Assembly (NCBI GenBank): GCA_030704615.1
Contig: CM060733.1
Location: 18,476,001 to 18,540,000, forward strand
Reading direction: 5' to 3'
DNA from: Takakia lepidozioides
Taxonomy: Eukaryota; Plantae; Bryophyta
Length of the DNA: 64,000 nt
Shown here: one piece after another, positions 6,214 through 62,017 of the stretch
How the letters are laid out: every line of letters begins with the position of its first letter
Position numbering within the stretch: position 1 is the stretch's first letter
Made by a program: the position numbers and the translations under genes
Notes under the pieces: generated by a model
Database searches by the model: none
What the model saw: the letters and a program-made list of their open reading frames with translations, nothing else
Told to the model about the DNA's origin: nothing

Positions 6214-6542
6214 GCAGCCCTAAAAATGGAGGGCTCGGATGGGTTATGGGAATGGACGGTGGCGAGCCTGCGCTGTCAGCGGACTGGATGGCAGGGGACT
6301 GGCCAGCGGACTGGCGGGCAGACTGGCGGACTGGCGACTACTGGGCAGCAGACTGGCCAGCAGCGGACTGGCAGACTGGAGGGCGGGGGACTCATGGGCG
6401 GGGGACTGGCCGCGCGGCGGACGGGGGGGCGGGCGGGGTGCTGGGGAGCCGGGCATCCGTGCGCGGGGCCCACCGGCCACATCGCACGTGCCCATTGAAG
6501 ACCCTATTATCTTAAAATGAGAGGCGGGCTACAAACCCCCCC
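6214..6542 (-). mobile_element. Terminal/subterminal segment of a Mutator-like DNA element that extends leftwards
   Basis: Its reverse complement aligns with 50576-50880, which precedes a MULE-type transposase; rich in GACTGG repeats. Confidence 0.7.
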
Positions 6543-7349: not shown

Positions 7350-7533
7350 AGGCATTCTCATCACTTTATATGATCTGATTGTACAGTTTTCTGCCGACAC
7401 CAATGACAAGCCTGCCCCTGCAACAAGAAATCACACATATACCCTCCCACCACTCACTTACCTAGATTGTTATTCATTGTAGTATTCTCTCTCTTTGCCA
7501 TCCTTGTAAATGTTTTGCTGTTTATTGAGCAGG

Positions 7534-9920
7534 TGTAGTGTGAATGCAGGGGGTAAAAATTCAAGTTTTTGTTTGGCATCAGGTTTCGGCACTACTACAA
7601 AGGGAGTGCCCTTCGTGCTAATGAAGGGGAGGAATTGTCCATAACTTGAGGTAATTCCATGGAAAGACTATGCTATTGATCTGCCAAGAACAAAATATGG
7701 CTAAGTTATGACATGCACCTTTTCATCCCTAGGATGAATGATTTTCATCCATGATGTTGAACCCTAGAAGCAGGATGTGAAATTCGAAGGGGAAGAGTGC
7801 GTGTATCTTTTCGCAGCTGCTGCAGTGGTGTTGGCAGCACAAGATATCTGAGAAAGTTCCACCTACGCAAAGGGTATCAGCTTGCTTTTAAGAGAAACGT
7901 TAAGAGCTCCTGCTTGGCTTTCTGTGCAAGAAGAAGCGGTGCCGCCTTCTTCGTAAGCAATGATCAAACCTGAGGGATCAGGTTTGTGATAAGGGCGGTG
8001 CACCACTGCTGTCGCCATTGTCTTGATGAGCACATTAATGAGGAGATGGAGCGGCTCAGCAGGTGTTGGGGGATGAGAAATGCAGGCTGGTGTGTATAGC
8101 GCCTCAGGTTGTCTGTGATCAAATCTTTGTAGCTGCTGTCTGTTTTTGAGCTTTAGGACCAGATCACTTTGTAAGGGAAGAGTGTAAGCATCTTTTCGCA
8201 GCTGCTGCAGTGGTGTTGGCAGTACAGCATATCTTAGGAAGTTCCACCTGCGCAAAGGGAATCAGCTTGCCTTAAAGAGCGACGTTAAGGGATCTGGCTT
8301 GGCATTCTGTGCAAGAGGAAGCGGTGCCGCCTTCTGGTGTGTATGGCGCTTAAGCTATCTATAATTAAGTTTTGTATCTGCTCTCTGTCTTAAGGGCTGT
8401 AGGACCAGATCACTTCATAGGGAAGAAATGCACATGTAGAAGGATAGGGTAGAGGTTGGCAGGCACAAGGATGTGCCAGCAGCTGAAGCAGAGCCGTCAT
8501 GCCTTAATGAGGACTGGAATCACGATAAGAAGAAACGTCGGAAATGGCTGACGAGGGAGAGGACAAGGTGCCTTCTTGACAGGCAGACCCACCGCTTCAA
8601 TGAGTATAAGACAGATAAGTTTGAAGAGTGGTCCCCCTTTTTTTGGTGACTTAGAAATCGCTTTGTGAAGTTTGGACTGTCTCTTGTATGTAGTAAGAGA
8701 CACTGACATGTGAGGAAGAAAAAGAGCTTTGGAAATGGAATGAAGACACTGGACTTCAAATCAGGATGGACTGGAGATGGATGCACCTGCTGTTACATTG
8801 TACAGTAGGAAAATGAATGGAAACAGGGTTGATTCGTTGCTGGGACAGAATGGTTGCTGCTGTTGTATTCTTGTTCTTTGTTTCAGCGTCATGAGCTTGT
8901 ACAAACAATCTAGCCTGGGATGTTGACACATTGCAGTCAATGTGGAACTAGCTTAGTAGGTAGAGGAAACCAGTGAGAGTTAGATAGAACTGTTTGGAAA
9001 CAACAAGAAGGGATGATGTGGATGGGGCAGAAAAACCAACATCTGTTTGGGTTTGGATCTGATTCTCAGGGTGCTCTCAGCATGTGAACCACTGAGGTTC
9101 ACAGTTGATGGGAAAAAGAGAGCTGTCAGGGTGTGTAAATTGAGACCTGTAGAAGGGTTGAGAGCTGTCTTGGGCAAATGGCTACACCTGGGAAAAGTGG
9201 AGTGTGAAGCATCTGTCATTGGCAAGAGAGGGACTGATAAAAGGGCTGATTATATCTTGTGTGACCAAGGTTGATTTCAATGCTGGGTGCACTGGATGCT
9301 TGGCTGAATGCGCATTGCATTGCATCATAGACATGCTACAGTGGAAAGAGTGAGGAACCTACTCACCCTGAAAGAAAGAGAGAGGGAGAGAGAAAAGGAC
9401 ATAAGGGAGAGAGCTGACCAGCAAGAGGGGATGGAGAGGAATGGATGATTGGGGCGGTAAGATAAAGAAAGCATGAACCCATGAAGGGCCAAACTGGTGG
9501 GCCTGCAACTCATGGCAGATCTGAGTTGCCTCCTTCTAAATCGTGATCTTATTACAAAGGGGATTCCACGTGTTGCTGACCAAGGGAGCTGCCCACAAGG
9601 GCAGTGGTCATCACTGACGTAGGGCTGGTTGCATCACTGAAGACAGCATGGTAACATGGCTGGTGCAGTGTACCAGGGAGAGGATGTCGTGTAGAAGTAG
9701 AACCACGGGTGAAAACAATACAGACTCCCCATCCATGTCTTCTCTTCCGCTGCGGCGTGGATGAGGATTGTGTGAACTCTGATCATGAAGGACCTGAGGG
9801 AAACCCACACCGAGTGACGATGGTTGGATCACTGAGAGGAGAGCTCCTTTCCTTCCCTCCAATTGACCTAGGGAGGAGCACAACTAGACTTGCACAGAAG
9901 GGGATTCACGCCCCTTCTTT
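7534..9920 (+). repeat. Family A LTR 1 (about 2.39 kb; ends CCCCTTCTTT with no terminal CA)
   Basis: Near-identical to 16513-18895 and 25487-27875; abuts the PBS directly. Confidence 0.95.
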
Positions 9921-9932
9921 TGGTATCAGAGC
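9921..9932 (+). promoter_or_regulatory. Primer binding site, tRNA-Met(i)
   Basis: TGGTATCAGAGC. Confidence 0.95.
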
Positions 9933-9989
9933 TGATGTTAAATCTTGATTTCTACTAGCTAGGGATCTTGACTGGTATTGGATGGTTTG

Positions 9990-10301
9990 ATGGCAGGAAG
10001 AGACCACACACTGATTCCTGATGAACCAAGCATTGGAGATGTGCTGATTTGCTTCAGCAGACGCACACCAAATGCACACGCAGACCCTTGTTTGTACTTC
10101 TTCAACCCTGCTTGGAGAATAGCGAATGGTGATTTATGTCTTAGAGTGATACATACTGGTGGAAGAACAACCATAGCACTTTGGATAAGAGAGTTAGGAA
10201 GGTGGGTGAAGATAAATACCATGGCACGAGAGGTGACATGGGGAGGTAGAGTAGAGATGTTGCGAAATGGACAGTGGGAGTGGTATAGAGGTCAACATTA
10301 A
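9990..10301 (+). CDS. Extra ORF upstream of gag (103 aa, Trp-rich, unknown function)
   Basis: ATG-initiated ORF filling most of the PBS-gag leader; intact in both copies. Confidence 0.45.
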   Translation: MAGRDHTLIPDEPSIGDVLICFSRRTPNAHADPCLYFFNPAWRIANGDLCLRVIHTGGRTTIALWIRELGRWVKINTMAREVTWGGRVEMLRNGQWEWYRGQH

Positions 10302-10372
10302 GGGAGTTGCGGGAAAATTAGAGTCAGAATTAGGTGTTGAAACAGTTTGAACTTTGACTAGAGAATAGAAGG

Positions 10373-12736
10373 ATGACCAGTCCAACCAGCATAGATGCGC
10401 CTTATCATGGTAGGAATAGTGAGGATGTAAATGACTGGCTGGAGAGAATTCAGATGGAGGCAGATGTCAGGGATTTGAATGAGGACAAAACTTTCAAGGT
10501 AGCAAGGCTCAACCTGAGAGCCAAGGCTGATGAATGGTACCGTAAACAAAACCCTAGACCAAACAACTGGGTGGACTTCAGGGCAGCAATTTCAGCCAAG
10601 TTTGGTATCGTTGACTTGGCAGAAATTAGGCTAAGAATGGATACCATTAAACAGGAGAGTAGACAAAGGGTTCAAACATACTTCGATAGGTTGAACCGGT
10701 TATTTATAAGAAGTGGGGCGTCTGATTTGGAACAGAGGCGTAGATTTGCAGCAGGTTTGAGACCAGAAATAGCAAGAGTAATGCTGGGCAGGCGCTTCCT
10801 TGATGTAGAGGAAGCACTTGACACAGCCATTGAGATTGAAAGGGGCCTGGGAAAGTTAGGGGAAATACCTCTAGAGCCATTGGAAGGAGATGATACAGAT
10901 GAGTCAGTTGTGTTTGTTAACCCTGTGGACAGAAGACTTGATCAGCTGAACACTACCCTACAGAAGTACTTTGATAGGGGACCAGTCATAGGAGAAAGCT
11001 CGGGATCTAGAACACCACCTCGTGTTCGCCTTTGTAATGTTTGTCACAAAGAAGGTCACATAGCTGCATATTGTCCTGAAGGAAGAACCCCAGCTAAGTG
11101 TGACAAATGTCACCGGTTCGGGCATTCCACGGAAATGTGTGGTGTGAGATGCAACTTTTGCAAGCTACTCGGGCATACGGAGAGTGAGTGCAGTAGAAAA
11201 CTCGACCAAACTATGATGGGAACTCCGGGAACTAACTTTGTAGACGTGTTCTATGATGATGAGGATGATGTACTCGCAGAGATGACAGATCTGATGTCAC
11301 GAAATAGTATCAATGAAGTCAGACTTCCAAGGACACGCATACCTGTCCAGAGTCCGATTGTTGAACCTACAGGGTCACCAGAAAGGAATAGTGAGAGCAG
11401 TGAACAGCCAAGCAAGACCAAGAGTGAAATCTACCCAAAGAACAATTTCAAGAATGCTATAGAAGGAGGTACGAAATCCAGAATCTTGAACCACTTCTAC
11501 AAAGGGAGAATATCGTTGTCGCCCATGGACCTGATCATGACTGTGCCCGGAGAGCTAGACAAATTGAAAGGGCTGGTCAAAGTGGTGGAAAGAGCAATGG
11601 TCCAACAAAGGGAGACAACTCACAGTGTAGAAGTTGTGAAGGATGTACCAAGGCCTTTGTACTCAGCACACGCTGAGCCCACGATCTCGTATGCTTATAC
11701 TGGTAAGGTTAAAGCGCTTCATGTAATGATTACAATGGGAGATTACCAAGTATTAGGCCAGATTGACACTGGTGCCATGCTTTCTGTAATATCAGCTAGT
11801 ACAGTCAGGGATCTTGGTTTGATGGGATCTGTCATTACTAGTAAGGATGTGAATTACAGAGTAGCCTCAGGTGCTCTTGAGACTGCAATGGGCAGACTTG
11901 AGGACATCAAGGTCAAAGTAGGAGAACTGACCAATCGTTTGTCCTTTATGGTGGTGAACACGGATACATATCACATGCTGCTGGGATTAGACTTTCTCAA
12001 AAAGTTTGGCGCTGTAGTGGACACCGAAGCTGAAACAATTCGCGTACGCTATGGGCCAGGAAAGGATTTTGCTCACTTCCCTTTGCACACCATCAATTAT
12101 AATGAGCCTGCAGTTACCAAAACAGCCTACCATAGAGGGGTCGAGAGTAGAATGAGATATGCAAGCAGTACGTCAGCAGGTAATGTCCTAACCCTGACGT
12201 CAGATGAACAGTACCTAGGCTTGTGGGAGAAGAAAAGAAAACCAGAGGAAGAATATGAGGACACGGAGGAAGCATCCTCAGGTTCTGACACCTCTAAATC
12301 TGATAAAGATGAGGAGATGGGAGGCTCTGAGGAGAGTAAGGAGGTAGAAACAGCACTGAGGGATGTTGAGGAAATAATAGACGATGTCAACCTAGGGGAG
12401 GACTTGTTCGAGGACCAAGGGATGTCTGAACTCCTTCAGGAAGAGACCCATAAGAGCATGGCTGCTGCCATAATACAGGAAGCTTACCAGAAAGCTTGGA
12501 ATGGTGAACTAGGGAACAACAACCTAGAAATAGAGGATGACTTCCATGATTGGAATCAGGTTGTCACACAAGAGGAACGACAGAGAATGGCTAACTCTGT
12601 AAGCCAGGTGGAGGGAAAGAATTGGGAACCCAGTCAAGAGGAAGAAATGGAGAGTCGTTGGAGAAGTCTGAAATCCAGACTGCACATCAACCCAGAACTG
12701 GCCCCAGAACATAGGATAGAGCTGAGCAAGAGCTGA
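10373..12736 (+). CDS. gag: Gag-protease polyprotein (capsid, three CCHC knuckles, aspartic protease, acidic linker)
   Basis: CNVCHKEGHIAAYC, CDKCHRFGHSTEMC, CNFCKLLGHTESEC; IDTGA...LLGLDFL. Confidence 0.95.
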   Translation: MTSPTSIDAPYHGRNSEDVNDWLERIQMEADVRDLNEDKTFKVARLNLRAKADEWYRKQNPRPNNWVDFRAAISAKFGIVDLAEIRLRMDTIKQESRQRVQTYFDRLNRLFIRSGASDLEQRRRFAAGLRPEIARVMLGRRFLDVEEALDTAIEIERGLGKLGEIPLEPLEGDDTDESVVFVNPVDRRLDQLNTTLQKYFDRGPVIGESSGSRTPPRVRLCNVCHKEGHIAAYCPEGRTPAKCDKCHRFGHSTEMCGVRCNFCKLLGHTESECSRKLDQTMMGTPGTNFVDVFYDDEDDVLAEMTDLMSRNSINEVRLPRTRIPVQSPIVEPTGSPERNSESSEQPSKTKSEIYPKNNFKNAIEGGTKSRILNHFYKGRISLSPMDLIMTVPGELDKLKGLVKVVERAMVQQRETTHSVEVVKDVPRPLYSAHAEPTISYAYTGKVKALHVMITMGDYQVLGQIDTGAMLSVISASTVRDLGLMGSVITSKDVNYRVASGALETAMGRLEDIKVKVGELTNRLSFMVVNTDTYHMLLGLDFLKKFGAVVDTEAETIRVRYGPGKDFAHFPLHTINYNEPAVTKTAYHRGVESRMRYASSTSAGNVLTLTSDEQYLGLWEKKRKPEEEYEDTEEASSGSDTSKSDKDEEMGGSEESKEVETALRDVEEIIDDVNLGEDLFEDQGMSELLQEETHKSMAAAIIQEAYQKAWNGELGNNNLEIEDDFHDWNQVVTQEERQRMANSVSQVEGKNWEPSQEEEMESRWRSLKSRLHINPELAPEHRIELSKS

Positions 12737-15700: not shown

Positions 15701-16491
15701 CCCGCTTTCTTGAGGAAGAAGTAATTGACAGGTATAGCTGCCCACATACGTTGCTCACTGACAATGGCACAGAGTGGGGAGGTGAGTTTGAAGATACATG
15801 CCACGAATACGGTATAAAGAGGGAGCATAGCGCCCCCTACTGGCCTCAGTGTAACGGTATGGTGGAAAGGGTCATTAAGTCTCTCAAACAGAGCATCACC
15901 ACCCTAGGAGTTGGAAACGACACTGAGTGGGATCAGAATCTCTATAAGGCCCTGTTTGGTTACAGAATGGGTGTCCATGCTTCCACTGGATTCTCACCTT
16001 TTCAGGTACTTACTGGTAGAATTCCCAGGCTGGGAATTGACAACAGGTTGCATTTTCTTACAACACCAGTAAATTCTGATGGATCTGTAGCAGAGGTCAC
16101 ACTTATGATGCAGCAGAAAATCCAGCTTCTCACAGAGATGAAGGCAAAGCTACGAAAGAGTGTGAAGAAAGGGCAGCGTCAACAGGCAAGAGATTATGAA
16201 AGAAGGCATCAAACAGGGCATACCTACTGCACGTTGATGGAGAACAGCAAGGTAATGATGTTGAGGCCTGGAAAGAGGTCTTCCATGACATCTCCATGGG
16301 AGGGACCCTATGACTTTTTGGGATACAAGGATGCAGGAAGCACAACCAAGACTGGAGAAGCTGCACGAAGATGCAGGTTGAGAGATGGAGCAGACAAGGA
16401 ATGGGTAAGAAGTAGGAGGGATTTAAAACCCTTCATACCACCAATAGGTGTTCAGCCGTTAAAGGTGGTCAGTGAGGACCCTGACACTTAA
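12715..16491 (+). CDS. pol: Pol: RT, RNase H, second degenerate RNase H, S/T-rich linker, integrase (GPY motif, no chromodomain)
   Basis: LDLQSGFWQ, MPFGLKNA, FVDD; DVDWS..E..TDH..DALSR; HHCC, IDTAGP/TDNG/GMVER, WEGPY. The frame is open from 12715, -1 relative to gag. Confidence 0.95.
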   Translation, partial: DRAEQELKANQECFALSKADLGYCSEVEHTIDTQGFPPCRSRPSRLSEWEEDEVQGQIETLISQGKMRESSSEWSCPVTLPPKKDGSKRFCGDFRPVNRLTRRDSYPMPLIQDVLNQLGKAKWFSALDLQSGFWQIKMDDRDIGKTAVITKKGLYEWLVMPFGLKNATATFQRTMNRVLKEEIKDCAKVFVDDVNIHSKDWGDHVGHIKRVLSKVRKANLRLNPDKCYFANLQLVFLGHVISEEGTWPDPDKIAAIERFPLPKNHTALKSYLGMTGYYRPYVKGYAGVAVPLFTLTKKDVKFIWSAEAQNAFSALQVKLVTAPILARPDFSRPFVLDVDWSIKGVGAVLSQKEYKKERVIAYASKVLSDAQRKYHPMEGECYALVWGVLHFRQYLYGTPFVIRTDHKPLEWLATVSDAYGRRGRWIMMLQDFEFKIVHRAGARHANVDALSRYPVGPAEETEEIEVYSTSLYSQKREGRKRDGAYLLKLAWDRGAINASLFQFKEGKEELREEAHRQVGYSSEKGEMICKREEYYACVWGLWHFKKILLGSHFSLETDLDPYWWLYSEHHIGIDLLGDFSFEFVPGIVRSSTGGMLTKDHGILKGELKPGIMPDGEGKRVTFAAQTFATKKKQGKGIDQSSSVNLVREGIWKDKGAGRIEATAISNKEREHLMPSCPTIHVITRGSRARDKELSEVHPACELVEERSNNEKGSLQETPFLQHLTSTPTTRRTRVTSSSECPAKENMGGECSTKTFCSSDSDGTSGSEQDTSSCNKIDEGDWVPWTAPTKATQMSLLREAERWGKSSLISSDHHTAAVKEERQPDVLDDVEVMHLLCFGEVNDYLTKEESKRAKRRARQYSYLKGEVYFDGRVVPPRTDRGAIITEVHEATGHFGVRRTQEEICRRYFWHDRTKLIRQVLKGCGKCQMAKQNGVLRSGSSKLHSIPVVDLFFRVAIDTAGPLPITSRGNQYFLVAIDHFSKWIEAAPVADHTAALAARFLEEEVIDRYSCPHTLLTDNGTEWGGEFEDTCHEYGIKREHSAPYWPQCNGMVERVIKSLKQSITTLGVGNDTEWDQNLYKALFGYRMGVHASTGFSPFQVLTGRIPRLGIDNRLHFLTTPVNSDGSVAEVTLMMQQKIQLLTEMKAKLRKSVKKGQRQQARDYERRHQTGHTYCTLMENSKVMMLRPGKRSSMTSPWEGPYDFLGYKDAGSTTKTGEAARRCRLRDGADKEWVRSRRDLKPFIPPIGVQPLKVVSEDPDT

Positions 16492-16521
16492 AAAAAGGAG
16501 ACACACTACATATGTAGTGTG
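16490..16521 (+). promoter_or_regulatory. Polypurine tract followed by a 20-bp att-like palindrome
   Basis: AAAAAAAGGAGA (16490-16501), then CACACTACATATGTAGTGTG (16502-16521). Confidence 0.9.
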
Positions 16522-18895
16522 AATGCAGGGGGTAAAAATTCAAGTTTTTGTTTGGCATCAGGTTTCGGCACTACTACAAAGGGAGTGCCCTTCGTGCTAA
16601 TGAAGGGGAGGAATTGTCCATAACTTGAGGTAATTCCATGGAAAGACTATGCTATTGATCTGCCAAGAACAAAATATGGCTAAGTTATGACATGCACCTT
16701 TTTCATCCCTAGGATGAATGATTTTCATCCATGATGTTGAACCCTAGAAGCAGGATGTGAAATTCGAAGGGGAAGAGTGCGTGTATCTTTTCGCAGCTGC
16801 TGCAGTGGTGTTGGCAGCACAGGATATCTGAGAAAGTTCCACCTACGCAAAGGGTATCAGCTTGCTTTTAAGAGAAATGTTAAGAGCTCCTGCTTGGCTT
16901 TCTGTGCAAGAAGAAGCGGTGCCGCCTTCTTCGTAAGCAATGATCAAACCTGAGGGATCAGGTTTGTGATAAGGGCGGTGCACCACTGCTGTCGCCATTG
17001 TCTTGATGAGCACATTAATGAGGAGATGGAGCGGCTCAGCAGGTGTTGGGGGATGAGAAATGCAGGCTGGTGTGTATAGCGCCTCAGGTTGTCTGTGATC
17101 AAATCTTGTAGCTGCTGTCTGTTTTTGAGCTTTAGGACCAGATCACTTTGTAAGGGAATGTAAGCATCTTTTGCAGCTGCTGCAGTGGTGTTGGCAGTAC
17201 AGCATATCTTAGGAAGTTCACCTGCGCAAAGGGAATCAGCTTGCCTTAAAGAGCGACGTTAAGGGATCTGGCTTGGCATTCTGTGCAAGAGGAAGCGGTG
17301 CCGCCTTCTGGTGTGTATGGCGCTTAAGCTATCTATAATTAAGTTTTGTATCTGCTCTCTGTCTTAAGGGCTGTAGGACCAGATCACTTCATAGGGAAGA
17401 AATGCACATGTAGAAGGATAGGGTAGAGGTTGGCAGGCACAAGGATGTGCCAGCAGCTGAAGCAGAGCCGTCATGCCTTAATGAGGACTGGAATCACGAT
17501 AAGAAGAAACGTCGGAAATGGCTGACGAGGGAGAGGACAAGGTGCCTTCTTGACAGGCAGACCCACCGCTTCAATGAGTATAAGACAGATAAGTTTGAAG
17601 AGTGGTCCCCCTTTTTTTGGTGACTTAGAAATCGCTTTGTGAAGTTTGGACTGTCTCTTGTATGTAGTAAGAGACACTGACATGTGAGGAAGAAAAAGAG
17701 CTTTGGAAATGGAATGAAGACACTGGACTTCAAATCAGGATGGACTGGAGATGGATGCACCTGCTGTTACATTGTACAGTAGGAAAAATGAATGGAAACA
17801 GGGTTGATTCGTTGCTGGGACAGAATGGTTGCTGCTGTTGTATTCTTGTTCTTTGTTTCAGCGTCATGAGCTTGTACAAACAATCTAGCCTGGGATGTTG
17901 ACACATTGCAGTCAATGTGGAACTAGCTTAGTAGGTAGAGGAAACCAGTGAGAGTTAGATAGAACTGTTTGGAAACAACAAGAAGGGATGATGTGGATGG
18001 GGCAGAAAAACCAACATCTGTTTGGGTTTGGATCTGATTCTCAGGGTGCTCTCAGCATGTGAACCACTGAGGTTCACAGTTGATGGGAAAAAGAGAGCTG
18101 TCAGGGTGTGTAAATTGAGACCTGTAGAAGGGTTGAGAGCTGTCTTGGGCAAATGGCTACACCTGGGAAAAGTGGAGTGTGAAGCATCTGTCATTGGCAA
18201 GAGAGGGACTGATAAAAGGGCTGATTATATCTTGTGTGACCAAGGTTGATTTCAATGCTGGGTGCACTGGATGCTTGGCTGAATGCGCATTGCATTGCAT
18301 CATAGACATGCTACAGTGGAAAGAGTGAGGAACCTACTCACCCTGAAAGAAAGAGAGAGGGAGAGAGAAAAGGACATAAGGGAGAGAGCTGACCAGCAAG
18401 AGGGGATGGAGAGGAATGGATGATTGGGGCGGTAAGATAAAGAAAGCATGAACCCATGAAGGGCCAAACTGGTGGGCCTGCAACTCATGGCAGATCTGAG
18501 TTGCCTCCTTCCAAATCGTGATCTTATTACAAAGGGGATTCCACGTGTTGCTGACCAAGGGAGCTGCCCACAAGGGCAGTGGTCATCACTGACGTAGGGC
18601 TGGTTGCATCACTGAAGACAGCATGGTAACATGGCTGGTGCAGTGTACCAGGGAGAGGATGTCGTGTAGAAGTAGAACCACGGGTGAAAACAATACAGAC
18701 TCCCCATCCATGTCTTCTCTTCCGCTGCGGCGTGGATGAGGATTGTGTGAACTCTGATCATGAAGGACCTGAGGGAAACCCACACCGAGTGACGATGGTT
18801 GGATCACTGAGAGGAGAGCTCCTTTCCTTCCCTCCAATTGACCTAGGGAGGAGCACAACTAGACTTGCACAGAAGGGGATTCACGCCCCTTCTTT
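16513..18895 (+). repeat. Family A LTR 2 (shared middle LTR)
   Basis: Preceded by PPT+CACACTACATA and followed directly by the PBS at 18896-18907. Confidence 0.95.
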
Positions 18896-18964
18896 TGGTA
18901 TCAGAGCTGATGTTAAATCTTGATTTCTACTAGCTAGGGATCTTGACTGGTATTGGATGGTTTG

Positions 18965-19276
18965 ATGGCAGGAAGAGACCACACACTGATTCCTGATGAA
19001 CCAAGCATTGGAGATGTGCTGATTTGCTTCAGCAGACGCACACCAAATGCACACGCAGACCCTTGTTTGTACTTCTTCAACCCTGCTTGGAGAATAGCGA
19101 ATGGTGATTTATGTCTTAGAGTGATACATACTGGTGGAAGAACAACCATAGCACTTTGGATAAGAGAGTTAGGAAGGTGGGTGAAGATAAATACCATGGC
19201 ACGAGAGGTGACATGGGGAGGTAGAGTAGAGATGTTGCGAAATGGACAGTGGGAGTGGTATAGAGGTCAACATTAA
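18965..19276 (+). CDS. Extra upstream ORF, copy 2
   Basis: Same translation as 9990-10301. Confidence 0.45.
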   Translation: MAGRDHTLIPDEPSIGDVLICFSRRTPNAHADPCLYFFNPAWRIANGDLCLRVIHTGGRTTIALWIRELGRWVKINTMAREVTWGGRVEMLRNGQWEWYRGQH

Positions 19277-19347
19277 GGGAGTTGCGGGAAAATTAGAGTC
19301 AGAATTAGGTGTTGAAACAGTTTGAACTTTGACTAGAGAATAGAAGG

Positions 19348-21711
19348 ATGACCAGTCCAACCAGCATAGATGCGCCTTATCATGGTAGGAATAGTGAGGA
19401 TGTAAATGACTGGCTGGAGAGAATTCAGATGGAGGCAGATGTCAGGGATTTGAATGAGGACAAAACTTTCAAGGTAGCAAGGCTCAACCTGAGAGCCAAG
19501 GCTGATGAATGGTACCGTAAACAAAACCCTAGACCAAACAACTGGGTGGACTTCAGGGCAGCAATTTCAGCCAAGTTTGGTATCGTTGACTTGGCAGAAA
19601 TTAGGCTAAGAATGGATACCATTAAACAGGAGAGTAGACAAAGGGTTCAAACATACTTCGATAGGTTGAACCGGTTATTTATAAGAAGTGGGGCGTCTGA
19701 TTTGGAACAGAGGCGTAGATTTGCAGCAGGTTTGAGACCAGAAATAGCAAGAGTAATGCTGGGCAGGCGCTTCCTTGATGTAGAGGAAGCACTTGACACA
19801 GCCATTGAGATTGAAAGGGGCCTGGGAAAGTTAGGGGAAATACCTCTAGAGCCATTGGAAGGAGATGATACAGATGAGTCAGTTGTGTTTGTTAACCCTG
19901 TGGACAGAAGACTTGATCAGCTGAACACTACCCTACAGAAGTACTTTGATAGGGGACCAGTCATAGGAGAAAGCTCGGGATCTAGAACACCACCTCGTGT
20001 TCGCCTTTGTAATGTTTGTCACAAAGAAGGTCACATAGCTGCATATTGTCCTGAAGGAAGAACCCCAGCTAAGTGTGACAAATGTCACCGGTTCGGGCAT
20101 TCCACGGAAATGTGTGGTGTGAGATGCAACTTTTGCAAGCTACTCGGGCATACGGAGAGTGAGTGCAGTAGAAAACTCGACCAAACTATGATGGGAACTC
20201 CGGGAACTAACTTTGTAGACGTGTTCTATGATGATGAGGATGATGTACTCGCAGAGATGACAGATCTGATGTCACGAAATAGTATCAATGAAGTCAGACT
20301 TCCAAGGACACGCATACCTGTCCAGAGTCCGATTGTTGAACCTACAGGGTCACCAGAAAGGAATAGTGAGAGCAGTGAACAGCCAAGCAAGACCAAGAGT
20401 GAAATCTACCCAAAGAACAATTTCAAGAATGCTATAGAAGGAGGTACGAAATCCAGAATCTTGAACCACTTCTACAAAGGGAGAATATCGTTGTCGCCCA
20501 TGGACCTGATCATGACTGTGCCCGGAGAGCTAGACAAATTGAAAGGGCTGGTCAAAGTGGTGGAAAGAGCAATGGTCCAACAAAGGGAGACAACTCACAG
20601 TGTAGAAGTTGTGAAGGATGTACCAAGGCCTTTGTACTCAGCACACGCTGAGCCCACGATCTCGTATGCTTATACTGGTAAGGTTAAAGCGCTTCATGTA
20701 ATGATTACAATGGGAGATTACCAAGTATTAGGCCAGATTGACACTGGTGCCATGCTTTCTGTAATATCAGCTAGTACAGTCAGGGATCTTGGTTTGATGG
20801 GATCTGTCATTACTAGTAAGGATGTGAATTACAGAGTAGCCTCAGGTGCTCTTGAGACTGCAATGGGCAGACTTGAGGACATCAAGGTCAAAGTAGGAGA
20901 ACTGACCAATCGTTTGTCCTTTATGGTGGTGAACACGGATACATATCACATGCTGCTGGGATTAGACTTTCTCAAAAAGTTTGGCGCTGTAGTGGACACC
21001 GAAGCTGAAACAATTCGCGTACGCTATGGGCCAGGAAAGGATTTTGCTCACTTCCCTTTGCACACCATCAATTATAATGAGCCTGCAGTTACCAAAACAG
21101 CCTACCATAGAGGGGTCGAGAGTAGAATGAGATATGCAAGCAGTACGTCAGCAGGTAATGTCCTAACCCTGACGTCAGATGAACAGTACCTAGGCTTGTG
21201 GGAGAAGAAAAGAAAACCAGAGGAAGAATATGAGGACACGGAGGAAGCATCCTCAGGTTCTGACACCTCTAAATCTGATAAAGATGAGGAGATGGGAGGC
21301 TCTGAGGAGAGTAAGGAGGTAGAAACAGCACTGAGGGATGTTGAGGAAATAATAGACGATGTCAACCTAGGGGAGGACTTGTTCGAGGACCAAGGGATGT
21401 CTGAACTCCTTCAGGAAGAGACCCATAAGAGCATGGCTGCTGCCATAATACAGGAAGCTTACCAGAAAGCTTGGAATGGTGAACTAGGGAACAACAACCT
21501 AGAAATAGAGGATGACTTCCATGATTGGAATCAGGTTGTCACACAAGAGGAACGACAGAGAATGGCTAACTCTGTAAGCCAGGTGGAGGGAAAGAATTGG
21601 GAACCCAGTCAAGAGGAAGAAATGGAGAGTCGTTGGAGAAGTCTGAAATCCAGACTGCACATCAACCCAGAACTGGCCCCAGAACATAGGATAGAGCTGA
21701 GCAAGAGCTGA
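19348..21711 (+). CDS. gag: Gag-protease polyprotein, copy 2
   Basis: 787 aa, same translation as copy 1. Confidence 0.95.
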   Translation: MTSPTSIDAPYHGRNSEDVNDWLERIQMEADVRDLNEDKTFKVARLNLRAKADEWYRKQNPRPNNWVDFRAAISAKFGIVDLAEIRLRMDTIKQESRQRVQTYFDRLNRLFIRSGASDLEQRRRFAAGLRPEIARVMLGRRFLDVEEALDTAIEIERGLGKLGEIPLEPLEGDDTDESVVFVNPVDRRLDQLNTTLQKYFDRGPVIGESSGSRTPPRVRLCNVCHKEGHIAAYCPEGRTPAKCDKCHRFGHSTEMCGVRCNFCKLLGHTESECSRKLDQTMMGTPGTNFVDVFYDDEDDVLAEMTDLMSRNSINEVRLPRTRIPVQSPIVEPTGSPERNSESSEQPSKTKSEIYPKNNFKNAIEGGTKSRILNHFYKGRISLSPMDLIMTVPGELDKLKGLVKVVERAMVQQRETTHSVEVVKDVPRPLYSAHAEPTISYAYTGKVKALHVMITMGDYQVLGQIDTGAMLSVISASTVRDLGLMGSVITSKDVNYRVASGALETAMGRLEDIKVKVGELTNRLSFMVVNTDTYHMLLGLDFLKKFGAVVDTEAETIRVRYGPGKDFAHFPLHTINYNEPAVTKTAYHRGVESRMRYASSTSAGNVLTLTSDEQYLGLWEKKRKPEEEYEDTEEASSGSDTSKSDKDEEMGGSEESKEVETALRDVEEIIDDVNLGEDLFEDQGMSELLQEETHKSMAAAIIQEAYQKAWNGELGNNNLEIEDDFHDWNQVVTQEERQRMANSVSQVEGKNWEPSQEEEMESRWRSLKSRLHINPELAPEHRIELSKS

Positions 21712-24700
21712 AAGCAAACCAGGAATGCTTTGCTCTTAGCAAGGCTGACTTGGGATACTGCAGTGAGGTAGAACACACAATTGACACACAAGGTTTTCCC
21801 CCTTGCAGAAGTCGTCCCAGCCGCCTATCAGAATGGGAGGAAGACGAGGTCCAAGGACAAATTGAGACTTTGATCTCACAAGGCAAGATGAGAGAGAGTA
21901 GTTCAGAATGGTCGTGTCCAGTTACCCTTCCACCAAAAAAGGATGGATCCAAGCGGTTTTGTGGTGATTTTAGGCCAGTAAACCGTTTACCAGAAGGGAC
22001 TCTTACCCTATGCCATTAATTCAGGATGTTTTAAACCAGTTGGGGAAAGCCAAGTGGTTTTCTGCGCTGGATTTACAATCTGGTTTTTGGCAGATCAAAA
22101 TGGACGACCGAGACATAGGCAAAACAGCAGTGATCACAAAGAAGGGATTGTATGAATGGCTAGTCATGCCATTCGGGCTAAAAAATGCCACTGCTACCTT
22201 TCAGAGAACAATGAATAGAGTGCTCAAGGAAGAAATCAAAGATTGCGCTAAGGTTTTTGTAGATGACGTCAATATCCATAGCAAGGACTGGGGAGATCAC
22301 GTGGGACATATAAAGAGAGTATTGAGCAAGGTTAGAAAGGCCAATCTTAGGCTCAATCCGGACAAGTGTTACTTTGCCAACTTACAGTTGGTATTCCTTG
22401 GGCATGTGATCTCTGAAGAGGGAACGTGGCCTGATCCAGATAAGATAGCTGCTATTGAAAGGTTTCCCTTGCCCAAAAACCACACTGCTCTCAAAAGCTA
22501 CTTAGGCATGACAGGGTACTATAGGCCCTATGTCAAAGGATATGCTGGAGTGGCAGTACCCTTGTTCACTCTAACCAAGAAGGATGTGAAGTTTATCTGG
22601 AGTGCAGAGGCACAAAACGCCTTTTCTGCCTTACAGGTGAAGTTGGTAACTGCTCCCATCCTGGCAAGACCAGATTTCTCAAGACCGTTCGTCTTGGATG
22701 TTGACTGGTCCATCAAAGGAGTAGGGGCAGTCTTGTCACAAAAGGAGTATAAAAAGGAGAGGGTCATTGCATACGCCAGTAAGGTACTATCTGATGCTCA
22801 GCGCAAATATCACCCTATGGAAGGTGAATGCTATGCCCTGGTGTGGGGAGTATTACACTTTCGGCAGTACCTGTATGGAACCCCTTTTGTAATCAGGACT
22901 GATCACAAACCACTGGAGTGGTTGGCAACGGTAAGTGACGCATATGGACGCAGGGGTAGATGGATCATGATGTTACAAGATTTTGAGTTTAAAATTGTTC
23001 ACAGAGCAGGTGCTAGGCATGCTAACGTAGATGCACTAAGCAGGTATCCAGTGGGACCAGCTGAGGAAACCGAGGAAATCGAGGTATACTCTACTTCTCT
23101 GTACAGTCAGAAAAGAGAAGGGAGAAAGAGGGATGGAGCCTATCTTCTTAAGCTAGCTTGGGATAGGGGTGCCATCAATGCTTCGTTATTTCAATTTAAG
23201 GAGGGGAAGGAGGAGTTGAGAGAAGAAGCTCATAGGCAAGTAGGGTATAGCAGTGAAAAAGGGGAGATGATTTGCAAAAGAGAAGAGTACTATGCATGTG
23301 TATGGGGCCTTTGGCACTTCAAGAAAATACTGTTGGGAAGTCATTTTTCTTTGGAAACAGATCTAGATCCATATTGGTGGCTATACTCAGAGCACCACAT
23401 AGGCATAGACTTACTTGGTGACTTTTCATTTGAGTTCGTTCCGGGCATAGTAAGATCTTCCACAGGTGGAATGTTGACCAAGGATCATGGCATATTGAAG
23501 GGAGAACTGAAACCAGGCATAATGCCAGATGGAGAAGGAAAGAGGGTGACTTTTGCTGCACAGACTTTTGCTACAAAAAAAAAACAAGGAAAGGGTATTG
23601 ATCAATCAAGCTCTGTCAATCTGGTGAGGGAGGGTATTTGGAAGGATAAGGGTGCAGGAAGGATAGAGGCTACTGCAATCAGCAACAAGGAAAGGGAGCA
23701 TCTGATGCCCTCTTGTCCCACCATCCATGTGATTACCCGAGGATCTCGTGCTCGTGATAAGGAGCTAAGCGAGGTACATCCAGCCTGTGAACTTGTGGAA
23801 GAGAGATCGAACAATGAAAAGGGAAGCTTGCAAGAGACACCATTCCTTCAACACTTGACAAGCACTCCAACAACAAGAAGAACGCGGGTGACTTCCTCAT
23901 CAGAATGCCCAGCCAAGGAAAACATGGGGGGTGAGTGTTCCACCAAGACGTTTTGTTCTTCAGACAGTGATGGAACAAGTGGTTCAGAACAAGACACTTC
24001 TTCTTGCAACAAGATTGATGAAGGGGACTGGGTACCATGGACCGCACCCACCAAAGCTACTCAGATGTCATTATTACGTGAGGCTGAAAGATGGGGGAAA
24101 AGCTCTCTCATCAGCTCTGACCATCATACAGCAGCTGTTAAGGAGGAAAGGCAACCTGATGTGCTTGATGATGTGGAAGTCATGCACCTCTTATGTTTTG
24201 GAGAAGTCAATGACTACCTGACAAAAGAGGAGAGCAAGAGAGCCAAGAGGCGGGCAAGGCAGTACTCCTATCTCAAAGGTGAGGTCTACTTTGATGGAAG
24301 GGTAGTTCCACCAAGAACTGACAGAGGGGCAATAATCACTGAAGTACATGAAGCCACTGGCCACTTTGGAGTCAGAAGAACACAAGAGGAGATATGCCGA
24401 CGTTATTTCTGGCATGATAGAACAAAACTCATCAGGCAAGTACTCAAGGGCTGTGGTAAATGTCAGATGGCCAAACAGAACGGAGTGTTGCGCTCAGGTA
24501 GCTCAAAACTTCACAGCATTCCAGTAGTGGATCTGTTTTTCAGAGTTGCAATTGACACGGCAGGACCATTACCTATAACCAGCAGGGGCAATCAGTACTT
24601 TCTGGTGGCAATCGATCACTTCTCAAAATGGATAGAAGCTGCACCAGTGGCAGATCATACAGCAGCCCTTGCTGCCCGCTTTCTTGAGGAAGAAGTAATT

Positions 24701-25465
24701 GACAGGTATAGCTGCCCACATACGTTGCTCACTGACAATGGCACAGAGTGGGGAGGTGAGTTTGAAGATACATGCCACGAATACGGTATAAAGAGGGAGC
24801 ATAGCGCCCCCTACTGGCCTCAGTGTAACGGTATGGTGGAAAGGGTCATTAAGTCTCTCAAACAGAGCATCACCACCCTAGGAGTTGGAAACGACACTGA
24901 GTGGGATCAGAATCTCTATAAGGCCCTGTTTGGTTACAGAATGGGTGTCCATGCTTCCACTGGATTCTCACCTTTTCAGGTACTTACTGGTAGAATTCCC
25001 AGGCTGGGAATTGACAACAGGTTGCATTTTCTTACAACACCAGTAAATTCTGATGGATCTGTAGCAGAGGTCACACTTATGATGCAGCAGAAAATCCAGC
25101 TTCTCACAGAGATGAAGGCAAAGCTACGAAAGAGTGTGAAGAAAGGGCAGCGTCAACAGGCAAGAGATTATGAAAGAAGGCATCAAACAGGGCATACCTA
25201 CTGCACGTTGATGGAGAACAGCAAGGTAATGATGTTGAGGCCTGGAAAGAGGTCTTCCATGACATCTCCATGGGAGGGACCCTATGACTTTTTGGGATAC
25301 AAGGATGCAGGAAGCACAACCAAGACTGGAGAAGCTGCACGAAGATGCAGGTTGAGAGATGGAGCAGACAAGGAATGGGTAAGAAGTAGGAGGGATTTAA
25401 AACCCTTCATACCACCAATAGGTGTTCAGCCGTTAAAGGTGGTCAGTGAGGACCCTGACACTTAA
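21690..25465 (+). pseudogene. pol: Pol copy 2 with a 1-bp deletion near 21988 (real or a sequencing error)
   Basis: CGTTTACCAGA vs CGTTTAACCAGA in copy 1; otherwise the same protein. Confidence 0.9.
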
Positions 25466-25495
25466 AAAAAGGAGACACACTACATATGTAGTGTG
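25464..25495 (+). promoter_or_regulatory. PPT plus 20-bp att-like palindrome, copy 2
   Basis: AAAAAAAGGAGA CACACTACATATGTAGTGTG. Confidence 0.9.
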
Positions 25496-27885
25496 AATGC
25501 AGGGGGTAAAAATTCAAGTTTTTGTTTGGCATCAGGTTTCGGCACTACTACAAAGGGAGTGCCCTTCGTGCTAATGAAGGGGAGGAATTGTCCATAACTT
25601 GAGGTAATTCCATGGAAAGACTATGCTATTGATCTGCCAAGAACAAAATATGGCTAAGTTATGACATGCACCTTTTTCATCCCTAGGATGAATGATTTTC
25701 ATCCATGATGTTGAACCCTAGAAGCAGGATGTGAAATTCGAAGGGGAAGAGTGCGTGTATCTTTTCGCAGCTGCTGCAGTGGTGTTGGCAGCACAGATAT
25801 CTGAGAAAGTTCCACCTACGCAAAGGGTATCAGCTTGCTTTTAAGAAAAACGTTAAGAGCTCCTGCTTGGCTTTCTGTGCAAGAAGAAGCGGTGCCGCCT
25901 TCTTCGTAAGCAATGATCAAACCTGAGGGATCAGGTTTGTGATAAGGGCGGTGCACCACTGCTGTCGCCATTGTCTTGATGAGCACATTAATGAGGAGAT
26001 GGAGCGGCTCAGCAGGTGTTGGGGGATGAGAAATGCAGGCTGGTGTGTATAGCGCCTCAGGTTGTCTGTGATCAAATCTTTGTAGCTGCTGTCTATTTTT
26101 GAGCTTTAGGACCAGATCACTTTGTAAGGGAAGAGTGTAAGCATCTTTTCGCAGCTGCTGCAGTGGTGTTGGCAGTACAGCATATCTTAGGAAGTTCCAC
26201 CTGCGCAAAGGGAATCAGCTTGCCTTAAAGAGCGACGTTAAGGGATCTGGCTTGGCATTCTGTGCAAGAGGAAGCGGTGCCACCTTCTGGTGTGTATGGC
26301 GCTTAAGCTATCTATAATTAAGTTTTGTATCTGCTCTCTGTCTTAAGGGCTGTAGGACCAGATCACTTCATAGGGAAGAAATGCACATGTAGAAGGATAG
26401 GGTAGAGGTTGGCAGGCACAAGGATGTGCCAGCAGCTGAAGCAGAGCCGTCATGCCTTAATGAGGACTGGAATCACGATAAGAAGAAACGTCGGAAATGG
26501 CTGACGAGGGAGAGGACAAGGTGCCTTCTTGACAGGCAGACCCACCGCTTCAATGAGTATAAGACAGATAAGTTTGAAGAGTGGTCCCCCTTTTTTTGGT
26601 GACTTAGAAATCGCTTTGTGAAGTTTGGACTGTCTCTTGTATGTAGTAAGAGACACTGACATGTGAGGAAGAAAAAGAGCTTTGGAAATGGAATGAAGAC
26701 ACTGGACTTCAAATCAGGATGGACTGGAGATGGATGCACCTGCTGTTACATTGTACAGTAGGAAAAATGAATGGAAACAGGGTTGATTCGTTGCTGGGAC
26801 AGAATGGTTGCTGCTGTTGTATTCTTGTTCTTTGTTTCAGCGTCATGAGCTTGTACAAACAATCTAGCCTGGGATGTTGACACATTGCAGTCAATGTGGA
26901 ACTAGCTTAGTAGGTAGAGGAAACCAGTGAGAGTTAGATAGAACTGTTTGGAAACAACAAGAAGGGATGATGTGGATGGGGCAGAAAAACCAACATCTGT
27001 TTGGGTTTGGATCTGATTCTCAGGGTGCTCTCAGCATGTGAACCACTGAGGTTCACAGTTGATGGGAAAAAGAGAGCTGTCAGGGTGTGTAAATTGAGAC
27101 CTGTAGAAGGGTGGAGAGCTGTCTTGGGCAAATGGCTACACCTGGGAAAAGTGGAGTGTGAAGCATCTGTCATTGGCAAGAGAGGGACTGATAAAAGGGC
27201 TGATTATATCTTGTGTGACCAAGGTTGATTTCAATGCTGGGTGCACTGGATGCTTGGCTGAATGCGCATTGCATTGCATCATAGACATGCTACAGTGGAA
27301 AGAGTGAGGAACCTACTCACCCTGAAAGAAAGAGAGAGGGAGAGAGAAAAGGACATAAGGGAGAGAGCTGACCAGCAAGAGGGGATGGAGAGGAATGGAT
27401 GATTGGGGCGGTAAGATAAAGAAAGCATGAACCCATGAAGGGCCAAACTGGTGGGCCTGCAACTCATGGCAGATCTGAGTTGCCTCCTTCTAAATCGTGA
27501 TCTTATTACAAAGGGGCTTCCACGTGTTGCTGACCAAGGGAGCTGCCCACAAGGGCAGTGGTCATCACTGACGTAGGGCTGGTTGCATCACTGAAGACAA
27601 CATGGTAACATGGCTGGTGCAGTGTACCAGGGAGAGGATGTCGTGTAGAAGTAGAACCACGGGTGAAAACAATACAGACTCCCCCATCCATGTCTTCTCT
27701 TCCGCTGCGGCGTGGATGAGGATTGTGTGAACTCTGATCATGAAGGACCTGAGGGAAACCCACACCGAGTGACGATGGTTGGATCACTGAGAGGAGAGCT
27801 CCTTTCCTTCCCTCCAATTGACCTGGGGAGGAGCACAACTAGACTTGCACAGAAGGGGATTCACGCCCCTTCTTTTCACACTACA
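25487..27885 (+). repeat. Family A LTR 3 plus a terminal 10-nt extension TCACACTACA
   Basis: LTR body ends at 27875, followed by T+CACACTACA and then the TSD. Confidence 0.95.
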
Positions 27886-27909
27886 CAGGGTTCTCTTCAT
27901 TACTATCTG

Positions 27910-46400: not shown

Positions 46401-47178
46401 GATGCCAAAAGTGGCATCATGAGCGATCGCAAGCAATGTTGTTGCAGTAAGGCGATTCGATCCTCGGGGAGGATCGTTCCTTGGCCTTGAAGTAGGCCAA
46501 GAAGAGTGCACTGGGAGGAGCTGGAGAGGCTCCACCTTTGGCCGGGACTTGGAGGAAGTCGGCCGAACTAGCTAGTGGAGAGTAGAGTCAAGTGTGGGGT
46601 TTGGTTCTTTGCAATGGGACGCCATGGTGTGGAAACAAACTCCTTGATGTGGGACGCCACAACTTGGATGTTCGTTTCTACAAAATGGACAAGTCGATGA
46701 GGACATCGACTCCCTGTTGGTAGGGGTGTGTGTCGCGGCCCTTTGCCTTGAGGGCAGGGGGTCGGGACACATGAGGGGCTGCCCCTGTGGTGGGGGCAGC
46801 GGCAGCGATAGGTATGGGGGGGCTGAAGCACCCTTGAGTGCCCAAGGCACTCAAGGAGGCGGAGGCGCTCACTAGGTGGAGCCCCGCACACCGGGTTGCG
46901 GTGGGGGTGGCTCCACAAGGGGTGGTGGTAGCTTAGCGGGACTTAGTGGGGGTGGCATAGGACTCACCATGGGGGAGTCGTGGTGGAGTCTTGGGACTCA
47001 TCACGGTCCATAGGGGCCGTGGTGAGTGGGCCAAGACTCACCGCGACTCATCACCGGGAGTCGAGGGTTTTCGTGGTGGTTCGCCATAAATGGCATGGCT
47101 GGTTGTGAAACCCCCGCGGACAGCTACAGAAGTATATATAAGGGGAGTAGTGACCCTGAGAACGGTGCAAGCCCGTTG
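40492..47178 (+). mobile_element. Chromovirus (Galadriel-like) LTR retrotransposon inserted in the LINE
   Basis: 5' LTR 40492-41218 (TGTCGCG...CGCGACA), PBS-Met at 41221-41232, 3' LTR 46731-47178 (truncated). Confidence 0.93.
41274..45827 (+). pseudogene. Single-frame gag-pol with a C-terminal chromodomain; two in-frame TAG codons and RT YIDN
   Basis: [67 protein letters not shown]; stops at 41838 and 44490. Confidence 0.93.
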
Positions 47179-61890: not shown

Positions 61891-62017
61891 ACCCTTGCCA
61901 GCATGATTGCATGTTGAAACGCAAGAGCAGTCACGGGCTGCACCAGTGTTACCAACGAGTATGGAGCACTTGTCGCGAGGCCAAGCATATATGACCAGGG
62001 CGGGCGGACAAGGGGAA

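Follow-up and report, generated by a model that had tools for sequence, protein, structure and literature searches.

The element described here belongs, with a probability that we put at roughly 0.65, to an undescribed clade of Ty3/gypsy retrotransposons for which the two-LTR circle is an obligatory integration precursor. The clade would carry a fossil circle junction stored behind the PPT, acquire its right att only once the ends of the cDNA have been joined, and use its DDE integrase as a palindrome opener. The letters of the right tip are stored beside the left tip, away from where normal copying reads them, and a circle is likely needed. The original prediction knew of no description of a circle-dependent pathway for an LTR element with a DDE integrase; we found no description of the pathway or of the layout in the literature searched, a scope outside which subscription papers and Repbase entries fall.

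Layout of the element in the window

The window is the whole analysed stretch of 64,000 nucleotides from Takakia lepidozioides (contig CM060733.1). All coordinates originally claimed for the element's ends, PBS junctions, palindromes and TSD were confirmed (Table 1). The left att TGTAGTGTG occurs at 7534, 16513 and 25487, while its counterpart CACACTACA, referred to as B, starts only at 16502, 25476 and 27877. The pyrimidine tract CCCCTTCTTT ends at 9920, 18895 and 27875. The PBS TGGTATCAGAGC, which we take to be complementary to the 3' end of initiator tRNA-Met, begins at 9921 and at 18896, in neither case preceded by CA, and the right end of the element reads CTTT-T-CACACTACA, reaching 27885. 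Both 20-bp palindromes are perfect, where ~0.06 would be expected from base composition; beyond these two, the window has perfect 20-bp palindromes only at an AT run (6998) and within a tandem repeat (29604). The distance from PPT to TG is 11 nt in the window and 9 nt in the relatives, second att included, against a canonical maximum of ~2 nt. As an internal control, a chromodomain element at 40492-47178 uses the same PBS 12-mer and has ordinary ends, TGTCGCG...CGCGACA-TT-PBS.

Table 1. Features of the split-end element, in window coordinates
Feature	Coordinates	Strand	Description
Left TSD copy CAGG	7530..7533	.	
LTR1, 2387 bp	7534..9920	+	left att TGTAGTGTG (B') at start, pyrimidine tract CCCCTTCTTT at end, no terminal CA
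PBS TGGTATCAGAGC	9921..9932	+	adjoins LTR1 directly
gag-protease frame	10358..12736	+	792 aa between stops; match to aspartic protease
pol frame, 1258 aa	12715..16491	+	RT, RNase H, degenerate second RNase H-like copy, HHCC + DDE integrase; no chromodomain
PPT AAAAAAAGGAGA	16490..16501	+	short T run before
Perfect palindrome B-TA-B' (CACACTACA TA TGTAGTGTG)	16502..16521	.	putative stored right att, 2-nt spacer, left att
LTR2 of tandem	16513..18895	+	PPT-palindrome to left, PBS to right
Second internal region	18896..25475	+	PBS, gag-pro 19333-21711, pol 21974-25465 (1-bp indel), PPT 25464-25475
Second B-TA-B' palindrome	25476..25495	.	
LTR3 core, 2389 bp	25487..27875	+	
Junction T + B (CACACTACA) = right att	27876..27885	+	missing from PBS-proximal LTRs
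Right TSD copy CAGG	27886..27889	.	

Over 6.6 kb, a comparison of the internal regions shows 0 substitutions and 1 indel, and of the 7 substitutions that separate LTR1 from LTR3, LTR2 agrees with LTR1 at all 7. Because the internal regions are nearly identical and LTR2 matches LTR1, the window contains, on this comparison, one insertion of this Ty3/gypsy element, flanked by a 4-bp TSD (CAGG), with an internal tandem duplication that is either recent or made by the assembly. Both sets of junctions are therefore present as originally claimed but are not independent of one another, and independent evidence has to come from relatives. In contigs of four public runs, the depth on the element is far greater than that on its flank; therefore, the element belongs to a multi-copy family. 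None of the pieces listed from these contigs bridges the right junction of the window. The runs listed as containing the element include no RNA data set, a result that carries no weight for or against.

Coding content and classification

The Pfam domain order protease-RT-RNase H-integrase is that of the Ty3/gypsy superfamily, to which the long direct terminal repeats, PBS, PPT and short TSD also conform. The integrase has both HHCC and DDE motifs, with the D, D, E triad aligned to that of PFV IN, and it matches Ty3 Gag-Pol with an E value of 4.6e-17. The canonical layout does not extend to the ends: U5 lacks CA 0-2 nt before the PBS in the window and in all 36 PBS junctions of the relatives, whereas the control chromovirus has it, and the LTR termini are unequal. 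The second RNase H-like stretch shows 30% identity to the element's own RNase H over 106 aa and has no Pfam match of its own; an additional archaeal-type RNase H (aRH) marks the Tat lineage.

Several known identities were considered and rejected. No Chromo domain was matched by Pfam in the window ORFs or the aligned members, and the RT tree places the element apart from an 11-row clade that includes the chromodomain element of the window, which rules out a chromovirus. In this tree, built without REXdb references, the RT forms its own clade (support 100/99) among the matches found. Phygy, as defined in REXdb, does not fit a PBS of the Met type rather than tRNA-Trp, nor TSDs such as CAGG, GTAG, ATGG and AAAT rather than NCGN. 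A tyrosine-recombinase retroelement (DIRS/PAT/Ngaro) is excluded by the DDE integrase and the TSD, and no tyrosine recombinase was found in 2 ORFs of the window or in 13 members that were aligned. The family is likely from plants; 'plant metagenome' is the label of one of the runs that contain it.

Split ends in independent insertions

Relatives with ~60% RT identity were taken from a limited set of metagenome assemblies, in which the 80 best out of at least 599 stretches were used, so that only two lineages are sampled. Of 82 loci, 21 were set aside because they had no pol end followed by 150 nt, and the tree omits 13 of the 73 proteins. The asymmetry predicted for independent insertions is borne out. 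CA is absent within 4 nt before the PBS, and B is absent there too, in 36/36 junctions, and in each of the 36 an intact PBS adjoins a T run. Behind the PPT, ACATATGT is present with at most one mismatch in 59 of the 61 loci with a pol end, the central TA being kept in 55 of the 59; the two exceptions are L013, in which B is deleted, and L041, which is interrupted. We recovered right ends for 38 loci, representing 35 distinct flanks, and these have the form core-T-(0/1 nt)-B. The other 21 of the 59 loci gave no right end, as 17 had <800 nt left, two (L018, L049) run into a PBS, and two (L023, L055) are interrupted or unresolved. A 4-bp TSD flanks 15 distinct full elements, exact in 12 and with one mismatch in 3. 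These alignments confirm the split-end layout as clade-wide and not a one-off.

The same layout in other assemblies bears on the notion that the window locus is a one-off rearrangement or an assembly artefact. The tandem duplication may indeed be an assembly product, and the right junction of the window is known from the assembly alone, but the layout recurs with a different B at 35 distinct right ends, and TSDs accompany 15/15 full elements. For the end layout the artefact reading is refuted and scarcely deserves further weight; it applies at most to the tandem. Searches for the origin of the layout in viral contigs (P0029, P0019) returned no loci, none of four genome-collection loci (30-41% identity) has a usable LTR pair, and a search for the T-run+PBS pattern found 15 viral contigs, 14 of them new, with a gag/pol match in none of the 14.

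B follows the PPT copy and the junction base varies

The variable core of the right-end B is identical to the element's own PPT copy in 35/35 cases (shuffle mean 15.2, maximum 25); it equals the reverse-complemented left att in only 10/35. On the integrase tree B changes at least 5 times, in both places each time. The bases at the junction, counted in 24 well-anchored right ends (11/35 were left out for lack of a 26/30 anchor), are T in 14, TT in 6, TA in 2 and TC in 2, and never none. The extra base differs between sister rows, as in L076/L077, L006/L011, L017/L059, L025/L067 and L074/L078, and because of this difference between sister copies the junction is likely made anew in every cycle. 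Homopolymer slippage after insertion could contribute to the class with an added T, though not to the A and C extras, and the minus-1 case was never seen. The core of the original prediction, that ends are joined and a palindrome is opened, withstood the attempt to refute it and gains support from the variable extra base and from the covariation of B with the PPT copy.

The right att looks composite, in that its likeness to the left end extends past B. Over positions 9-17, the left end agrees with the composite right end at 4.6/9 and with the PPT side at 1.0/9, the former being the better match in 34/35, and the same comparison in the window gives 7 vs 2 of 11; the PPT-side palindrome thus lacks such likeness. 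We also considered that the U5 pyrimidine tract pairs with the PPT, but in the window such pairing is poor, and a role as the att's inner half explains the tract better. Single-sequence folds of 15 relatives and the window show no common structure around the palindrome. The permuted and single-LTR forms that had been predicted did not materialise: neither these nor an LTR-LTR junction was found among the 82 loci. Given this negative result, the presence of a palindrome does not appear to be enough for the integrase to open it. Permuted forms and LTR-LTR junctions would be expected from a fully closed circle if the integrase read the short palindrome only, and the composite-att argument that accounts for their absence is post hoc.

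Proposed mechanism and alternatives

We consider it very probable that joining of the cDNA ends yields a two-LTR circle, which the DDE integrase then opens at the palindrome and inserts; the join-first reading is drawn entirely from integrated copies. As read in the sequence, a T run closes the 5' LTR and abuts the PBS. The B behind the PPT is the sole B expected in RNA, and standard tRNA and PPT priming would give a linear cDNA that starts with B-TA-TG... and ends with ...CTTT and one T, likely copied from the last A of the tRNA, its right end having no CA. The ends would be joined with capture of one untemplated base or none; for this step, host end-joining is slightly favoured (~55:45) over an end-to-end jump by RT. 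This join would build a composite right att, with the U5 pyrimidine tract as the inner half and B as the outer 7-9 bp, that mirrors the left att; the PPT-side palindrome, in which the inner half is absent, would be ignored. Cutting after CA on both strands with a 2-nt stagger would leave a TA 5' overhang on both ends, the shape of ordinary 3'-processed ends, and these would be inserted with a 4-bp TSD. The final structure, again as read in the sequence, is TG-LTR-PBS...PPT-B-TA-TG-LTR-T(N)-B.

The agent of joining may differ from the one just favoured. RT could add the untemplated base and jump between the cDNA ends in the particle, so that a nicked circle is opened at once by end-bound integrase, with no prior host ligation; this variant falls within the join-first reading and is a serious possibility, if not our first choice. 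It would account for junctions that are precise, with no loss in 24/24, but imprecise host joins would be filtered by integration anyway. Base pairing would be possible between an added A and the T run that ends the LTR at 36/36 PBS junctions, but that run is also accounted for by the inner half of the att. End-bound integrase would account for the unused distant PPT palindrome, and the available text of PMC1180852 proposes RT-stage junctions for PFV; against this, host joining is efficient under an integration block, where 2-LTR circles near 50% of HIV DNA according to the available text of PMC4372172.

Integration may instead precede joining. The left-end palindrome of the linear cDNA would be cut, the long molecule and the 7-9-bp B fragment would be inserted on opposite sides, and host repair would connect the free right end of the former to the latter without any circle. 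The same end structure, the 0/1-base heterogeneity and the absence of permuted forms would result, yet we find this improbable. As an intasome arm, in which ~16-20 bp are contacted, a duplex of 7-9 bp would be short; the left/right likeness crosses the junction into U5 (4.6 vs 1.0 of 9), suggesting that the right att is read after joining; and repair of a chromosomal break should produce deletions, of which there are 0 in 24. Even less credible is that B is inherited from the old right end, via a transcript extending across the entire 3' LTR and non-standard priming or transfer, with the palindrome as a by-product. No circle would be necessary, and the transcript ends assumed above are predicted ones. 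That account has difficulty with a right-end B that tracks the PPT copy in each of at least 5 changes, with an extra base unlike between sister copies, and with an intact PBS on the T run in 36/36, which fixes the start of the minus strand.

Relation to known systems

The non-chromovirus plant Ty3/gypsy lineages Phygy, Selgy and OTA (REXdb, PMC6317226) share with the element the PR-RT-RH-IN order, DDE integrase, tRNA PBS, PPT, TG...CA outer termini and lack of a chromodomain. The TSD is 4 bp, as in Phygy, Selgy and TatI, while the PBS is of the Met type, compared with Trp in Phygy and TatI and Ala in Selgy. Unlike in those lineages, the LTR termini are unequal and the right att could not be templated on linear cDNA. 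Split direct repeats of the form A1-internal-B1-A2-B2 and a proposed circular intermediate characterise the PAT/Ngaro tyrosine-recombinase retroelements. The parallel drawn originally with these holds for the split terminal repeats and the proposed circle, as an analogy only; it fails in that the element has a DDE integrase, a 4-bp TSD and a B of just 7-9 bp, and no tyrosine recombinase.

The retroviral 2-LTR circle junction offers a likeness in mechanism. The available texts describe cleavage of palindromic LTR-LTR junctions by the PFV and HIV-1 integrases, following earlier SNV/ASLV proposals, in which a DDE integrase cuts a two-att palindrome to give both processed ends at once (PMC1180852, PMC1905944), and we propose likewise for the element. 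In retroviruses the join creates the palindrome and the route is optional or salvage, whereas the element carries a ready-made palindrome behind its PPT and appears to depend on the route. Also unlike the retroviral junction, the element's join would lie 7-9 bp beside the palindrome and be retained in the inserted copy.

Implications

Whether circular DNA is a true integration precursor has been debated since the circle-junction proposal of 1984; the available text of PMC1180852 describes retroviral circles as long regarded as dead ends and the early claims as unsubstantiated, and that of PMC4372172 indicates that HIV-1 2-LTR circles can supply integration once drug is removed. The linear route of retroviruses masks any circular one. 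Here, the genome layout would leave the linear cDNA without a right att, and a circular or joined route is therefore cleanly testable. If RT itself joins the ends, this would be a third strand transfer, which to our knowledge is known from no LTR element. LTR finders that assume identical TG...CA repeats would probably miss or mis-annotate this multi-copy clade. If our reading is true, the clade would provide a natural DDE integrase specialised in circle opening, of relevance to the intasome mechanism, the salvage of 2-LTR circles under integrase inhibitors and the re-insertion of eccDNA.

Layout of the element

The element, by its proteins, is a Ty3/gypsy non-chromovirus; neither a chromodomain nor a tyrosine recombinase was found among them, and the DDE triad of its integrase aligns with that of PFV integrase. 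Re-reading the window reproduced the originally described layout as written, from CAGG to CAGG. Perfect 20-bp palindromes such as those formed behind the PPT by the short right att, B, are expected only ~0.06 times by base composition.

Features of the element and of the surrounding window
Feature	Position	Remark
Gag fragment	1-295	identical to same family's gag (11254-11548)
TSD CAGG	both outer flanks of element	basis: sequence
LTR1	7534-9920	PBS next, at 9921
Internal region 1	between PBS at 9921 and PPT	
gag-protease	10358-12736	encoded by element
RT, RNase H, integrase	12715-16491	encoded by element
Frame overlap	12715-12736	22 nt
Second RNase H-like domain	14155-14580 (+)	between RNase H and integrase; degenerate copy of pol's own
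PPT (first)	16490-16501	then CACACTACA-TA
B (CACACTACA)	16502, 25476, 27877	sole occurrences in window
LTR2	16513-18895	then PBS, second internal region, PPT, CACACTACA-TA
LTR3	25487-27875	then T, then CACACTACA ending 27885, then CAGG
Perfect 24-bp palindrome	29602-29625	within array of about 80-bp repeats (29323-29732)
Control gypsy element	40492-47178	chromodomain; ordinary TG...CA ends
Stop in control element	44490-44492	between RNase H and integrase
Duplicated segment	51619-58736 and 62000-62215	4.4-kb spacing, 88% over 2.3 kb; arrays of CACAGC-type units, 10 and 19 bp
Zinc-knuckle ORF	54618-55415	in duplicated-segment region

The gag-protease and pol frames differ, as do those at the equivalent site of the duplicate, and a programmed frameshift, a mutation or an assembly error are candidate readings; some relatives carry protease and RT within one protein (for example P0022). 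The second RNase H-like domain matches the element's own RNase H at 30% over 106 aa (E 2e-11) and sits within a long linker that is shorter and different in relatives.

The two internal regions show 0 substitutions and 1 indel over 6.6 kb, and LTR2 agrees with LTR1 at 7/7 of the sites where LTR1 and LTR3 differ (7 substitutions), which points to a tandem that is either a recent duplication or an assembly product; unequal crossover between a 3' LTR and a 5' LTR would fit as its source. The sequence at both junctions is as first described, but the window holds one independent insertion, not two. Contigs of public runs cover the element at far greater depth than its flank, which makes this a multi-copy family; none of the contig pieces listed bridges the right junction. 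The fragment at 1-295, which breaks off abruptly into unrelated DNA, is another, truncated family copy about 7 kb upstream. The control element, 13 kb away, has an identical PBS 12-mer and ordinary ends (CA-TT-PBS), and the oddity is therefore a property of the studied element. The 3' LTR match of the control ends after about 450 bp.

The layout in independent insertions

Alignment of pol relatives at 54-65% identity yielded 80 loci from metagenomes, the top-ranking ones among at least 599 stretches, and 2 from the viral collection; two lineages are sampled in all. In an RT-RNase H tree of 60 of 73 proteins, the window and 8 relatives form one clade (100/99), separate from that of the chromodomain element. 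Their B differs from the window's (GGTTACA, GGTGACA, GGCTACA, GGTCACA), and the layout is shared. The original prediction was put at risk by searching these insertions for B before the PBS and for a missing palindrome after the PPT. CA occurs in the 4 bases before the PBS in 0/36 junctions, which read TTTT (23), CTTT (11) and, in the remainder, CCTT or TCTT; ACATATGT (<=1 mismatch) follows the PPT in 59/61 loci with a pol end, with the central TA in 55/59. Both counts (36 and 61) include a few insertions present in more than one assembly. In the 38 right ends, which lie at 35 distinct flanks, the pyrimidine tract is followed by T, then 0 or 1 base, then B. The TSD is 4 bp in all 15 distinct full elements (12 exact, 3 with one mismatch), and an exact 5-bp TSD is seen in 0/15. 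The finding withstands this test; the end layout is real and clade-wide, and a one-off rearrangement or assembly artefact is scarcely credible beside it.

Several loci depart from this picture or lie outside it. At locus L013 (about 6440-6460) the PPT is followed by no B (GGAGGG-TA-TG), so that the junction looks ordinary, and the contig stops short of the right end; the loss is either a deletion or a reversion. Loci L018 (7909-8676) and L049 (5732-6662) have a single LTR with the PPT palindrome at left and the PBS at right, resembling LTR2; L018 is probably a collapsed assembly because of its 123-bp terminal repeat. Fourteen viral-collection contigs (L083-L096) carry a T run immediately before TGGTATCAGAGC and gave no match to the element's gag or pol; some may be plant pararetroviruses, by resemblance, with chance as the alternative. 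Contigs of a bacterial MAG (L097, L098) carry a gypsy-like pol (38% identity) that is probably host DNA caught in the bin.

Origin of the right end and its junction

At the right end, the variable core of B is identical to that of the element's own PPT copy in 35/35 (shuffle mean 15.2, maximum 25; 20000 shuffles), but to the reverse-complemented left att in only 10/35. Since kin have a common B, changes were counted on the integrase tree; there are at least 5, each at right end and PPT copy alike. The whole 7-mer agrees in 30/35; among the 5 misses, 4 have TA in place of CA ahead of a G, a pattern suggestive of decay through methylation at a later time. The right end thus appears to be copied from the B behind the PPT.

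In the 24/35 right ends that could be firmly anchored, LTR core and B are separated by T (14), TT (6), TA (2) or TC (2), and in no case do the two abut. The separating bases are unlike between sister loci (L076/L077, L006/L011, L020/L072, L017/L059, L025/L067, L074/L078), and the junction looks to be made anew every cycle. Two poorly anchored ends (L014, L024) have an extra G. The tRNA's last A leaves a T in HIV-1; a T that never varies, with or without one further base, agrees with such a T followed by untemplated RT addition, captured at end joining. Slippage could account for some TT junctions, but not for the A or C extras. The window's B has no GG, so joining requires no microhomology with the PBS.

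Proposed mechanism

By established priming rules, the minus strand is initiated immediately ahead of the PBS and the plus strand immediately past the PPT; the linear cDNA would accordingly start B-TA-TG and end in a T run without CA. Its ends would then be joined, as a circle or concatemer, and integrase would make a cut staggered by 2 nt, following the CA of each strand and leaving TA as a 5' overhang at both ends, like ordinary 3' processing. Layout, conservation, covariation, junction variation and TSD are shown, all of them from integrated copies. From them, we consider joining before opening and insertion by integrase to be the probable order (roughly 80%). As the joining step, host end-joining and an end-to-end jump of RT fit the sequence about equally well, with a slight lean towards the former.

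The left end bears on the order of events. Its positions 9-17 match the composite right end at 4.6/9 versus 1.0/9 for the PPT side (better in 34/35), and the window's left end does so at 7/11 versus 2/11. The right att seems to behave as a composite, with the U5 pyrimidine tract as inner half and B as outer half, and a likeness spanning the U5 tract speaks for reading of the site once the ends are joined; integration first with joining later is improbable. Inheritance of B through read-through RNA, set beside junctions that vary between sisters, is more doubtful still. A two-LTR circle would contain two palindromes, and the left end's likeness to the composite rather than to the PPT side is a possible reason why only one is used. 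The permuted forms of the original prediction did not appear, with no LTR-LTR junction or PPT-B-host end in the 82 loci; one junction candidate was a minus-strand reading of the ordinary PPT palindrome, and two others lay inside coding DNA. At LTR positions 16-22, 35 related elements carry a second B-like motif, GGT, 8 nt past the left att (window counterpart, 19-21), with G17 and T18 invariant in 35/35; it can pair with the left att and may be part of att or a hairpin. The circle junction of an ordinary element whose spacers are one base long would read CA-T-A-TG; speculatively, the palindrome may be the fossil of such a junction, once captured downstream of the PPT.

Comparison with known systems

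The split repeats of PAT/Ngaro elements are an analogy only. No published description of the layout was found in the literature searched, without subscription journals and Repbase. In the REXdb lineage table (PMC6317226), a Met PBS together with a 4-bp TSD and the lack of any extra domain occurs in none of the lineages; the RT-RNase H tree covers hits from the searches, without REXdb sequences. Cleavage of palindromic LTR-LTR junctions by integrase is itself already known, in the reports consulted, with circle-junction cleavage shown for PFV (PMC1180852) and HIV-1 (PMC1905944) and salvage described for 2-LTR circles of HIV-1 (PMC4372172). The likeness concerns the proposed working of our element, for which we infer circle and cleavage. 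In those cases, as reported there, the palindrome is created by the join and the route is optional, whereas here the palindrome is pre-built, the inserted copy keeps the join, and the route appears to be obligatory.
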